DNA from: Escherichia phage RB3
Sequence record: KM606994
Reading direction: 5' to 3' (one strand)
DNA: 64,000 nt
Below the pieces are notes generated by a model, which searched no databases, had not been told where the DNA came from, and was given only the letters and a program-made list of their open reading frames with translations. Of this stretch, positions 2,874-4,636 are shown piece by piece (position 1 is the first letter of the stretch; each line of letters opens with the position of its first letter). Made by a program: the position numbers and the translations under genes.

Positions 2874-2916
2874 TTTATTCTCCAAGTTGTTTTCTGTATC
2901 AGTAGTTGATAGTTGT

Positions 2917-2946
2917 ATAGTACCATGGAAGAACAGGGATGTAAAC
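2917..2946 (-). promoter_or_regulatory. T4-type early promoter (GTTTAC -18 nt- TACTAT)
   Basis: Minus-strand GTTTAC at 2946-2941 and TACTAT at 2922-2917, same architecture as five other copies in window. Confidence 0.45.
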
Positions 2947-3077
2947 AGTTTTGTGAAAAAATTTTTAAAAAGTTTTAGGGAATTCTAGGGCGGGGAGGGG
3001 CAATTAAAAGATAGGATAATATATTATAAAGGATATAAACTAAATGATGCCTAGAGAGACAAGGAAAGGCCTAGATA

Positions 3078-3106
3078 CCAAAAAGCCCCAACCTTTCGGT
3101 CGGGGC
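3078..3106 (-). terminator. rho-independent terminator ending the tRNA/stable RNA transcription unit
   Basis: Minus-strand hairpin GCCCCGACC-GAAA-GGTTGGGGC followed by TTTTT. Confidence 0.6.
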
Positions 3107-3158
3107 TAAGCCTTGCGGCAACCTTGTCGGGGTTCCACCTGCTAAGGCAAGTGTTTGT

Positions 3159-3301
3159 ACGAAACGCCGGGATTCGAACCCGGTTATTAAGCAGTTGACG
3201 CTACTCAATATTTTTAAAAGGCCATATCTCGACCATATCCGAACGTTCCGTCAAAAACGCTACTCGGCTTACGGCAAAGATATTTCCTCGAATCGATAAT
3301 T
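3159..3301 (-). ncRNA. putative tRNA-like stable RNA (about 140 nt), boundaries approximate
   Basis: No ORF; canonical T-arm CCGGG-TTCGAAT-CCCGG followed by 7-nt acceptor-like strand, but no matching 5' acceptor strand within tRNA distance; internal repeat TTGAGTAGCGT twice. Confidence 0.3.
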
Positions 3302-3423
3302 TGGTGCGCCGTTTCTGCTGTGATATAAGGGGGCATTAACAAAACATAAAGATTTATTAATGCCAGTCCTTAAACAGGGAACATCAGTCCGACGACTTGC
3401 CGGTAGCGACCCGGCTTCTTGTC
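3302..3423 (-). ncRNA. putative stable RNA (about 120 nt) ending in GGCGCACCA, boundaries approximate
   Basis: Starts directly after tRNA-Arg; hairpins GCCGG-GTCGCTA-CCGGC and GGCATTAA..TTAATGCC; 3' end resembles acceptor plus CCA. Confidence 0.3.
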
Positions 3424-3499
3424 TGGTCGAGGCAGTAGGGATCGAACCTACGACCCAGGACTTAGAAGGTCCTTGCTCTTCCTTCTGAGCTATGCCTCG
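3424..3499 (-). tRNA. tRNA-Arg (anticodon UCU)
   Basis: Manual fold: acceptor CGAGGCA/TGCCTCG, anticodon loop CTTCTAA, T-loop GGTTCGATCC, encoded CCA. Confidence 0.85.
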
Positions 3500-3503
3500 T
3501 ATT

Positions 3504-3578
3504 TGGCGGACGTGATAGGATTCGAACCTATAACCAATCGCTTAACAGGCGATCGCTCTGCCATTGAGCTACACATCC
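3504..3578 (-). tRNA. tRNA-Asn (anticodon GUU)
   Basis: Manual fold: acceptor GGATGTG/CACGTCC, D-arm GCTC-AATGGCA-GAGC, anticodon loop CTGTTAA, T-arm ATAGG-TTCGAAT-CCTAT, CCA. Confidence 0.85.
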
Positions 3579-3582
3579 AAAT

Positions 3583-3669
3583 TGGTGGGGAGTGATGGAG
3601 TCGAACCACCCGAGTCGCAATGACAATGGATTTACAGTCCACACCGCTACCTCTACGGGATAACTCCCC
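3583..3669 (-). tRNA. tRNA-Tyr (anticodon GUA), class II with long variable arm
   Basis: Manual fold: acceptor GGGGAGT/ACTCCCC, anticodon loop CTGTAAA, long variable arm, T-loop TTCGACT, CCA; 87 nt. Confidence 0.8.
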
Positions 3670-3678
3670 TAATTAATT

Positions 3679-3753
3679 TGGTGGCCCTGGGTGGAATTGA
3701 ACCACCATCTGGCGATTATGAGTCGCTTGCTTGAACCTTCCAGCTACAGGGCC
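3679..3753 (-). tRNA. tRNA with CAU anticodon (Ile if lysidine-modified, otherwise Met)
   Basis: Manual fold: acceptor GGCCCTG/CAGGGCC, anticodon loop CTCATAA, T-loop GGTTCAATTCC, CCA; sits where T4 has tRNA-Ile. Confidence 0.85.
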
Positions 3754-3754
3754 T

Positions 3755-3830
3755 TGGCGCTGATTGACGGAATCGAACCGCCGACATCCTCATTACAAGT
3801 GAGGTGCTCTACCTACTGAGCTAAATCAGC
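3755..3830 (-). tRNA. tRNA-Thr (anticodon UGU)
   Basis: Acceptor GCTGATT/AATCAGC, D-loop TAGCTCAGTAGGTAGAGC, anticodon loop CTTGTAA, T-loop GGTTCGATTCC, CCA. Confidence 0.9.
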
Positions 3831-3835
3831 AAAAC

Positions 3836-3925
3836 TGGCGGAGGCGATAGGATTTGAACCTATGAGTCGCCGGAGCGACTGCCGGTTTTCAAGACCGGTG
3901 CATTAAACCACTCTGCCACGCCTCC
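3836..3925 (-). tRNA. tRNA-Ser (anticodon UGA), class II
   Basis: Acceptor GGAGGCG/CGCCTCC, anticodon loop CTTGAAA, long variable arm, T-loop GGTTCAAATCC, CCA; 90 nt. Confidence 0.9.
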
Positions 3926-3927
3926 AG

Positions 3928-4001
3928 TCTCCATACAAGGATTTGAACCTTGGACCTCCTGATCCCAAATCAGGCGCTCTACCAAACTGAGCTACACGGA
4001 G
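3928..4001 (-). tRNA. tRNA-Pro (anticodon UGG)
   Basis: Acceptor CTCCGTG/TATGGAG with G-U pairs, D-loop TAGCTCAGTTTGGTAGAGC, anticodon loop TTTGGGA, T-loop GGTTCAAATCC; CCA not encoded. Confidence 0.9.
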
Positions 4002-4011
4002 TAAATTAAAT

Positions 4012-4085
<74 letters not shown>

Positions 4086-4090
4086 AAATT

Positions 4091-4177
4091 TGGTGCGAGA
4101 AGTGGGACTCGAACCCACAAGGAAATCATTCCGCAGCATTTTAAGTGCTGTGCCTTTACCAATTTGACCATTCTCGC
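4091..4177 (-). tRNA. tRNA-Leu (anticodon UAA), class II
   Basis: Acceptor GCGAGAA/TTCTCGC, anticodon loop CTTAAAA, long variable arm, T-loop GGTTCGAGTCC, CCA; 87 nt. Confidence 0.9.
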
Positions 4178-4178
4178 G

Positions 4179-4251
4179 CTGGGAATAAAGGACTCGAACC
4201 TTTGCATCCTGGAATCAAAATCCAGTGCCTTACCAACTTGGCTAATTCCCA
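4179..4251 (-). tRNA. tRNA-Gln (anticodon UUG)
   Basis: Acceptor TGGGAAT/ATTCCCA, anticodon loop TTTTGAT, T-loop GGTTCGAGTCC; CCA not encoded; 1 nt from tRNA-Leu. Confidence 0.9.
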
Positions 4252-4348
4252 ATTATTAACAAAGGCTCTCTAACAAGAACCCTTGATGATAGAGGGTATT
4301 AATCAGTGCGGTATGAGTTAATAATAACAAATAATTCTTAAAGCATAT

Positions 4349-4636
4349 TTACCATTTATGATAATACGTATTTACGATACATTCAAGACCCAAAGGATTC
4401 TTGAAAATATCATATTCAAGAGGACCTTTTTCTGTTTCAATAAAGAAATCAAAATTTACTATATTAAATTTACGGTCTTCCTTCACTAATTTAACCTGAG
4501 AAGATGAACGGTCAATGTAAACCTTTTCAACTTCAAAACATGTTAAAATGCCATAATCATCAATCAAGTCTTTAGCTGCTTCTTGATCATATTTATATCC
4601 ATTTTCAATGGATGATACTTTAGCATAAAGAATCAT
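4349..4636 (-). CDS. hypothetical protein (95 aa), ip-locus accessory gene
   Basis: ORF tightly packed after the 136-aa ORF (2-nt gap); no recognisable motif. Confidence 0.5.
   Translation of the reverse strand: MILYAKVSSIENGYKYDQEAAKDLIDDYGILTCFEVEKVYIDRSSSQVKLVKEDRKFNIVNFDFFIETEKGPLEYDIFKNPLGLECIVNTYYHKW

Follow-up and report, generated by a model that had tools for sequence, protein, structure and literature searches.

Organization and identity of the rnaD–rnaC locus

The 64,000-nucleotide (nt) stretch of Escherichia phage RB3 DNA analysed here (sequence record KM606994; hereafter the window) contains two genes for small non-coding RNAs, rnaD and rnaC, located between a cluster of transfer RNA (tRNA) genes and an intrinsic terminator. 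All features under study are read on the minus strand. Positions 2900–3500 are identical (601/601 nt) to AJ884578, the record of the RB3 tRNA gene cluster, which annotates rnaD ('species II RNA') and rnaC ('species I RNA') at the mapped positions and describes the rnaD gene as 'predicted based on 5' and 3' end homology'. RB55, a phage of the T4 species, has both RNAs annotated in this order, and rnaC is also annotated in Kha5h. The rnaC sequence is 100% identical to the RB3, RB10, and Kha5h copies and 98.6% identical to that of RB55 (two substitutions), and rnaD is 100% identical to the RB3 copy and 87.3% identical to those of T4T and RB55. Judged by these identities, rnaD and rnaC are orthologues of the species 2 and species 1 RNAs of T4, respectively, which goes beyond mere resemblance. 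The species 1 and 2 RNAs of T4-like phages have been known since the 1970s, and their detection here is a rediscovery and not the finding of a new element. The features of the locus are as follows.

4321..4345, minus strand: middle-promoter-like site upstream of tRNA-Gln, read from the sequence
3424..4251, minus strand: ten tRNA genes in the order Gln, Leu, Gly, Pro, Ser, Thr, Met-CAU, Tyr, Asn, Arg (ARAGORN and Rfam RF00005)
3499..3424, minus strand: tRNA-Arg(UCU), the last tRNA (ARAGORN)
3302..3422, minus strand: rnaD (species II or species 2 RNA), 121 nt, starting 1 nt after tRNA-Arg (RB3 annotation)
3296..3301, minus strand: spacer AAUUAU between rnaD and rnaC
3156..3295, minus strand: rnaC (species I or species 1 RNA), 140 nt, modelled as a cloverleaf-like four-way junction (RB3 annotation)
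3108..3155, minus strand: structured 3' trailer from rnaC to the terminator, removed according to the annotated 3' end of rnaC
3079..3107, minus strand: intrinsic terminator of the tRNA–rnaD–rnaC operon (hairpin 3107..3084 followed by UUUUU)

A preliminary description, made from the letters of the window, had placed two stable non-coding RNAs of about 120 and about 140 nt, similar to T4 species 2 and species 1, in a structured region free of open reading frames (ORFs) that ends at a strong terminator. The two RNAs are indeed the orthologues of those species, with sizes of 121 and 140 nt in the RB3 annotation, and the terminator is a 10-bp, G+C-rich hairpin followed by TTTTT. Both segments fold better than all of 200 dinucleotide shuffles, with minimum free energies of -39.1 kcal/mol (z = -3.30) for rnaD and -50.1 kcal/mol (z = -4.17) for rnaC. 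The limits given there (3159–3423) were right for the region but off by 1–3 nt at each end, the RB3 record giving 3156–3422.

Neither RNA belongs to an Rfam family: at gathering and at permissive thresholds no family was found for either of them, and the sub-threshold scores in 2900–3500 did not exceed 19 bits. A covariance model built from the rnaC family itself (R1) scores 161 bits at this locus, the sole copy in the window.

Conserved cloverleaf-like structure of rnaC

Comparison of rnaC homologues identified the following elements, numbered from the 5' end of the 140-nt RNA.

3289..3295, minus strand: 5' strand of the acceptor-like stem, rnaC 1–7 (CGAUUCG), pairing with 130–136
3219..3288, minus strand: arm I, rnaC 8–77, a long bent hairpin with apical loop UGAC at 3253..3250
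3185..3210, minus strand: arm II, rnaC 86–111, a 10-bp stem with loop CGUCAA; 8 of the 10 pairs covary
3167..3183, minus strand: T arm, rnaC 113–129, CCGGG-UUCGAAU-CCCGG, one A after arm II
3160..3166, minus strand: 3' strand of the acceptor-like stem, rnaC 130–136 (CGUUUCG)
3156..3159, minus strand: single-stranded 3' tail UACA, in place of the N-CCA of tRNAs

The RNAalifold consensus of 18 rnaC sequences, aligned with MAFFT without structural guidance, is a cloverleaf in which 20 of the 46 pairs show compensatory changes. In this alignment, 97.6% of the cells are paired, compared with 37–48% when the pairing partners are slid, and double changes occur at 20 pairs, compared with 2–6 in the slid controls; none of 500 shuffles reached the observed values. 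When 25 sequences were used, both sides had changed in 31 of 50 pairs (4–11 in slid controls). Across 33 distinct sequences, 42 positions are invariant. On the strength of this covariation, rnaC is a conserved, cloverleaf-like and tRNA-shaped RNA.

The acceptor-like stem comprises 7 bp, including two U.U mismatches. Its A3-U134 pair is replaced by G3-C134 in 21 of the 33 sequences, and the tandem U.U (4/133 and 5/132) is kept in 32 of them, the remaining one (phage TG1) having U-A and C-G instead. Because the 1–7/130–136 stem covaries, the partner of the acceptor-like 3' strand can be assigned to the 5' end of rnaC. The preliminary description had reported a perfect T arm, which is present at 3183..3167, and an acceptor-like strand without a 5' partner; no partner lies at tRNA distance, but one exists about 125 nt upstream. 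The T arm contains two covarying pairs and is stacked directly on the acceptor-like stem in the model. In arm I, 18 of the 23 pairs above an invariant 3-bp base show changes on both sides, and the arms of the Gelderlandvirus, Marfavirus, and PEi20 types have the same shape with an entirely different sequence. Arm I is joined to arm II by an 8-nt A/U linker (UUUAAAAA). Most tails read UACA (27 sequences); the Marfavirus clade accounts for 6 with UCCA, and a single sequence has UUCA.

In Kanagawavirus (L004 and L077), the T loop reads UGCAUGC (positions 118–124, otherwise UUCGAAU) and G73 is changed to C, while G74 and loop C120 are invariant in all 33 sequences. These changes would fit a contact of the D-loop/T-loop elbow type, in which G73.U119 became C73-G119 and G74-C120 was kept, and they represent a single event.

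An alternative helix, 45–52/130–137, which would form an 'internal tRNA' within rnaC, was rejected, as none of its pairs shows a compensatory change and 9 of the 18 sequences break it. This helix underlies the weak match of rnaC to tRNA-Sec and two erroneous tRNA calls in GenBank, namely a 94-nt 'tRNA-Lys(ttt)' in G29 (L009, 1245–1338) and a 96-nt 'tRNA-Phe(gaa)' in KKP_3262 (L329, 573–668). In Marfa (L353, 1516–1653), rnaC is annotated as a 'hypothetical protein' coding sequence with a ribosome-binding site.

Probable loop–loop contact in rnaC

The arm I loop U43-G-A-C46 is complementary to the arm II loop G97-U-C-A100 (GUCA, 3199..3196), and pairing could continue into the flanking U42/A101 and G47/C96. 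This complementarity is kept in all 33 distinct rnaC sequences. In TG1, C46U occurs together with G97A, and in six sequences of the Marfavirus clade A45G occurs together with U98C, the loop pairing being preserved in both cases. These joint changes are otherwise unexplained, because the positions are unpaired in the secondary structure of rnaC. The loops of arms I and II thus probably pair and would lock the body of the RNA into a compact fold.

A heptamer, GUAGCGU, is present on the 5' flank of both hairpins (3263..3257 and 3204..3198; rnaC 33–39 and 92–98), and the complement of its first six bases, CGCUAC, is found in the invariant loop of an rnaD hairpin (3408..3403). This 6-nt complementarity is probably meaningless, being expected by chance at these sizes between two RNAs that occur independently.

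Structure and variation of rnaD

A consensus structure of rnaD was drawn from 17 variants, and two of its hairpins are located as follows.

3399..3415, minus strand: rnaD hairpin 1, GCCGG-GUCGCUA-CCGGC, loop invariant
3324..3374, minus strand: rnaD apical hairpin, hypervariable

The outer pair of hairpin 1 covaries (G-C in 3, A-U in 13, and G-U in 1 sequences), and a plus-strand 'terminator-like' match at 3399..3415 is the mirror image of this hairpin. The basal stem (27–33/112–119) is invariant, a U-A pair of the middle stem is changed to A-U in six sequences, and the upper stem is also shared. In other phages, at least three unrelated hairpin sequences stand in place of the whole apical hairpin. 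Conservation is concentrated in a 5' module of about 48 nt and a 3' module, UCACAGCAGAAACGGCGCACCA. In this model, rnaD has the shape of a rod, its ends being conserved and its apical hairpin exchangeable.

The preliminary description had regarded both RNAs as tRNA-like, which holds for rnaC but not for rnaD, a hairpin followed by a long rod. The CCA-ending segment to which it pointed is present (GGCGCACCA at 3310..3302, minus strand), but its CCA, which T4 shares, is not conserved, since the corresponding end is CCG, CAG, or CCU in other phages (the last two nucleotides being CA, CG, AG, or CU among the 17 variants). A tRNA-like nature of rnaD was rejected because the RNA lacks a T arm, pairing is predicted for A118 and C119, and the CCA is not conserved.

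In public records, rnaD is often covered by hypothetical proteins. Many Tequatroviruses carry a 116-amino-acid (aa) ORF of the T2 'trna.2' type between tRNA-Arg and rnaD (L003, ~1134–1500; L009, 731–1081), the stop codon of which falls within 1–7 nt of the annotated 5' end of rnaD. This ORF is absent at position 3423 of the window, as in RB3 and T4.

Distribution and gene context of the two RNAs

Of 749 phage records found by BLAST, 682 carried rnaC at 95% identity or more and 491 at 99% or more, whereas rnaD reached 99% identity in only 38 of 733 records. More distant rnaC homologues were found in Karamvirus, Kanagawavirus, Moonvirus, Tegunavirus, Gelderlandvirus, and Marfavirus and in Edwardsiella, Kosakonia, and Erwinia phages; phages of Proteus, Serratia, and Pectobacterium gave matches by BLAST alone that were weaker or partial. 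By sequence homology, rnaC is present in many genera of the Tevenvirinae. No match to the rnaC 3' core was found in bacterial and archaeal genomes (one each from 185,579 species). Two loose pattern scans of viral contigs yielded, among the matches listed, at least one new true homologue (L274), nearly all of the others being chance matches. As a negative control, the rnaC covariance model was run on 0.92 Mb of this unrelated viral DNA and gave one match (E = 0.56).

In genera other than Tequatrovirus, rnaC lies 6 nt after a tRNA with no rnaD before it. In Karamvirus, Moonvirus, Tegunavirus, Gelderlandvirus, and Erwinia phages, it is located between tRNAs, with a downstream spacer of 3–8 nt, and in Kosakonia phage 305 it has no tRNA within 600 nt. 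Conversely, five rnaD-bearing loci, one of which is that of Dhakavirus IME281 (L331), lack rnaC. There, rnaD is joined directly to the trailer and terminator by a clean 146-nt absence of AAUUAU plus rnaC, and a covariance-model search of these loci found no rnaC. An obligatory partnership of the two RNAs is thus ruled out, each being found without the other.

In Mosigvirus AV115 (L354, 651–800), the 3' part of an annotated 'tRNA-Asn', from GGTTCGAATCCCGG onwards, consists of the last 25 nt of rnaC followed by the trailer and terminator, and there are mismatches in the T stem and acceptor of this 'tRNA'. The gene seems to have arisen by a deletion that joined a tRNA and rnaC at their common T-arm sequence. 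The conserved TΨC stem-loop motif present in that sequence is part of the recognition site of the SegB homing endonuclease (PMC2330249). In Marfa, a hairpin in the 67-nt spacer between tRNA-Met and rnaC (L353, 1434–1500; GGGGUGG/CCACCCC) was also considered, but its fold was not significant (z = -1.54).

Operon signals, coding potential, and processing

The ten tRNAs of the window scored 30–74 bits with RF00005, and their order is that of the RB3 record; tRNA-Tyr was barely above the Rfam threshold (30.2 versus 29 bits). The cluster includes tRNA-Tyr and tRNA-Asn and has no segB gene, whereas RB55 carries eight tRNAs with segB between those for Met-CAU and Arg.

The promoter-like site upstream of tRNA-Gln consists of TGCTTTA (4345..4339), which resembles the MotA box, a 12-nt spacer, and a -10-like TATTAT (4326..4321). 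The transcript of the operon is likely to start at this site (4345..4321). The terminator hairpin has a 10-bp stem with seven G-C pairs and a GAAA loop, phages Kha5h and G29 have an annotated terminator in the corresponding position, and the trailer and terminator together fold with z = -3.69. By homology and sequence, the tRNA genes, rnaD, and rnaC form one transcription unit with the tRNAs first. In T4, transcription of the tRNA cluster begins at a middle promoter immediately upstream and ends after the species I gene; the resulting primary transcript of about 1.75 kb gives rise to the tRNAs and to species I and II (PMC2330249). In the same phage, rnaC was shown by northern blot to accumulate as a stable RNA of about 140 nt, the two RNAs accumulate late in infection, and RNAD was classed as a late RNA (PMC9697503). 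The core of the T4 late promoter, TATAAATA, occurs 21 times in the window (10.4 expected; shuffle maximum 18), one of these copies (4590–4597, minus strand) falling within the ORF upstream of the tRNA genes.

The ORFs found between tRNA-Arg and the terminator are all of 21–45 aa, most of them with a TTG start, the longest on the minus strand (42–45 aa) being 3214..3342 and 3071..3208. No reading frame is open throughout the 33 distinct rnaC homologues, and the longest frame is interrupted by stops in the T4-type RB55 and in the Gelderlandvirus and Marfavirus types, in agreement with the preliminary description. That this stretch encodes small proteins, as hypothetical proteins annotated under the match in many GenBank records and the two longest ORFs would have it, is extremely improbable, given the predominance of TTG starts, the lack of a frame open across the family, the stops just mentioned, and substitutions that follow the pattern of a paired RNA.

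According to the proposed pathway, one transcript would span the ten tRNAs, rnaD, and rnaC and end at the hairpin 3107..3084, and host tRNA-processing enzymes would excise the small RNAs from it. The acceptor/T-arm helix is the element that RNase P and other tRNA-binding proteins recognize on tRNAs. Because the 12-bp acceptor/T-arm stack and 3' tail of rnaC constitute such an element, and because the spacing of rnaC within tRNA clusters is that of a tRNA, RNase P may cut between U3296 and C3295 to generate the 5' end of rnaC. Processing of the T4 species 1 precursor presumably involves RNase P and RNase E. An endonuclease and 3' exonucleases would then trim the trailer and the AAUUAU spacer, and the mature RNAs may owe their stability to compact folding.

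Comparison with known systems

The rnaC of the window shows no difference of substance from that of T4, with which it shares its length (140 nt here versus 139–140 nt) and its place between rnaD on one side and the operon terminator and gene e.8 on the other. The rnaD genes likewise share their position right after tRNA-Arg and the conserved 5' and 3' modules, the 87.3% identity being due to different apical hairpins. No comparative structure of rnaC, and no distribution beyond Tequatrovirus, was found in the literature searched.

In common with tRNAs, rnaC has a 7-bp, end-closed acceptor-type stem, a coaxially adjacent 5-bp T stem with a UUCGAAU loop, and a 4-nt 3' tail with CA at its end; it is also co-transcribed with tRNAs and spaced from its neighbours as tRNAs are. 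It differs from them in its length (140 nt), in the 70-nt arm that takes the place of the D arm, in the 10-bp arm with a 6-nt loop that replaces the anticodon or variable arm, in the absence of an anticodon loop, and in the tail, UACA instead of NCCA. ARAGORN found no tRNA in 3156–3422, RF00005 gave no match, and the best match in the tRNA clan was tRNA-Sec (16.6 bits versus a gathering score of 47; E = 2). Apart from the non-conserved CCA, rnaD has nothing in common with tRNAs.

No transfer-messenger RNA (tmRNA) was found by ARAGORN, and among the tmRNA, YrlA, and plant-virus tRNA-like families the sole Rfam match at E <=10 was tmRNA_permuted (10.1 bits versus a gathering score of 47). In the tRNA-like domain of tmRNA, in YrlA, and in the plant-virus structures, a mimic of the acceptor/T arm admits an RNA that is not a tRNA to tRNA-specific proteins. 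As a working analogy, rnaC may be likened to these embedded tRNA-like modules, although it has no tag frame, Ro-binding stem, or pseudoknotted acceptor.

Possible functions of rnaC and rnaD

We tentatively propose that rnaC is a trans-acting, stable tRNA mimic that occupies or diverts a host tRNA-binding factor. An accessory trans-acting RNA is suggested because the junction and the kissing loops are strictly conserved, the distribution is confined to phages, and the RNA is naturally dispensable. A tRNA-binding partner is suggested because one face of rnaC is tRNA-like, and a function in trans because rnaC is retained without nearby tRNAs in Kosakonia phage 305. The candidate target would most plausibly be a tRNA-directed nuclease or another tRNA-dependent host-range or defence factor, with rnaC serving as a decoy or inhibitor. 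For rnaD, a separate accessory role, with the variable hairpin under host-specific selection, is a still more doubtful proposal. These roles are favoured because the tRNA cluster of T-even phages counters tRNA-cleaving defence (PMC13096335) and because a single convergent single-nucleotide polymorphism (SNP) in rnaD arose in 3/3 lines of the T4-like phage BW1 adapted to the semi-permissive Escherichia coli strain ECOR34 (PMC12685909).

Alternatively, both RNAs may be purely cis-acting by-products, that is, structured spacers that provide an RNase P entry site, shield the upstream tRNAs against 3' exonucleases entering from the terminator, and are functionless once released. Their place in Tequatrovirus as the last genes of the operon, directly ahead of the terminator, their natural dispensability, and the lack of a known function in reviews and omics papers are all consistent with this explanation. 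However, several genera have rnaC inside the tRNA cluster, flanked by tRNAs, and it can also stand alone without nearby tRNAs, and because of these arrangements it cannot be regarded as a terminal cap. A spacer would also have no need for the 42 invariant positions, four-way junction, and covarying loops seen in the 33 distinct sequences, and the RNAs accumulate as stable species in T4 (PMC9697503). We therefore consider a purely cis-acting role unlikely.

A further explanation, that rnaC and rnaD are small regulatory RNAs (sRNAs) that pair with host or phage mRNAs through conserved single-stranded stretches, appears quite improbable. Invariant unpaired segments are present in both RNAs, the rnaC linker UUUAAAAA and the rnaD loop GUCGCUA being candidate pairing segments, and the two RNAs have been termed 'small regulatory RNAs' (PMC9697503). 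On the other hand, no target has been identified (no search for targets was made), and the mature RNAs, by their annotated ends, do not carry the terminator hairpin and U tail typical of Hfq-dependent sRNAs. In addition, the rnaC loops with the highest conservation are mutually complementary and not free, and according to a 2010 review no trans-acting regulatory RNA of T4 had been functionally characterized.

It is very improbable that rnaC is the remnant of a decayed tRNA pseudogene with an unselected structure. The T arm and acceptor-like strand without a normal cloverleaf, the low scores of the Rfam tRNA and tRNA-Sec models (<=16.6 bits), and the two GenBank records in which the 3' two-thirds of rnaC is called a 94–96-nt 'tRNA-Lys' or 'tRNA-Phe' might all be taken as signs of decay. 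Such an origin is already contradicted by the sequence comparisons, in which every rnaC helix shows strong compensatory covariation in an unguided alignment, rnaC is far more often nearly identical among records than its neighbour rnaD, and the 45–52/130–137 helix of the 'tRNA' calls is uncompensated and frequently broken. The preliminary description had named a degenerate tRNA pseudogene without conserved structure as the finding that would speak against its proposal, and the covariation of rnaC contradicts it.

Leaving function aside, we assign a probability of about 0.88 to the combination of identity, outline of biogenesis, and rnaC architecture. Several points weigh against parts of the overall interpretation. 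Most rnaC members have a UACA tail and not CCA, and the T-loop consensus is lost in Kanagawavirus; therefore, full tRNA mimicry is not kept universally. The loop–loop pairing is supported by two independent substitution events, which is modest. From the rnaD-only loci and the genera without rnaD, both RNAs are naturally dispensable, and most genera other than Tequatrovirus lack rnaD. The processing steps proposed above are drawn from homology and from older T4 literature. The convergent rnaD SNP in BW1 could reflect standing variation or an effect in cis. The species 1 and 2 RNAs are described as having no known role (PMC3014915), and no function was assigned to either of them in the literature searched.

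Implications

The species 1 and 2 RNAs, on record for about fifty years, have no known function and no Rfam family, and a reading of the sequence alone was able to pick them out. The present analysis adds a comparative structural model and a distribution map for these two old orphan RNAs. The model indicates which nucleotides to mutate and which natural phages lack which RNA, and it points to a tRNA-binding partner as the thing to seek. The full proposal, in which rnaC is a subfamily-wide, phage-only tRNA mimic built on a kissing-loop body and acting in trans on a host tRNA-binding factor, for instance as a decoy or inhibitor of immunity that targets tRNAs, and rnaD is a second, independently mobile host-range RNA, is unlikely. 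If it were true, rnaC would be no curiosity of T4 but a tRNA mimic carried throughout the subfamily and found only in phages.

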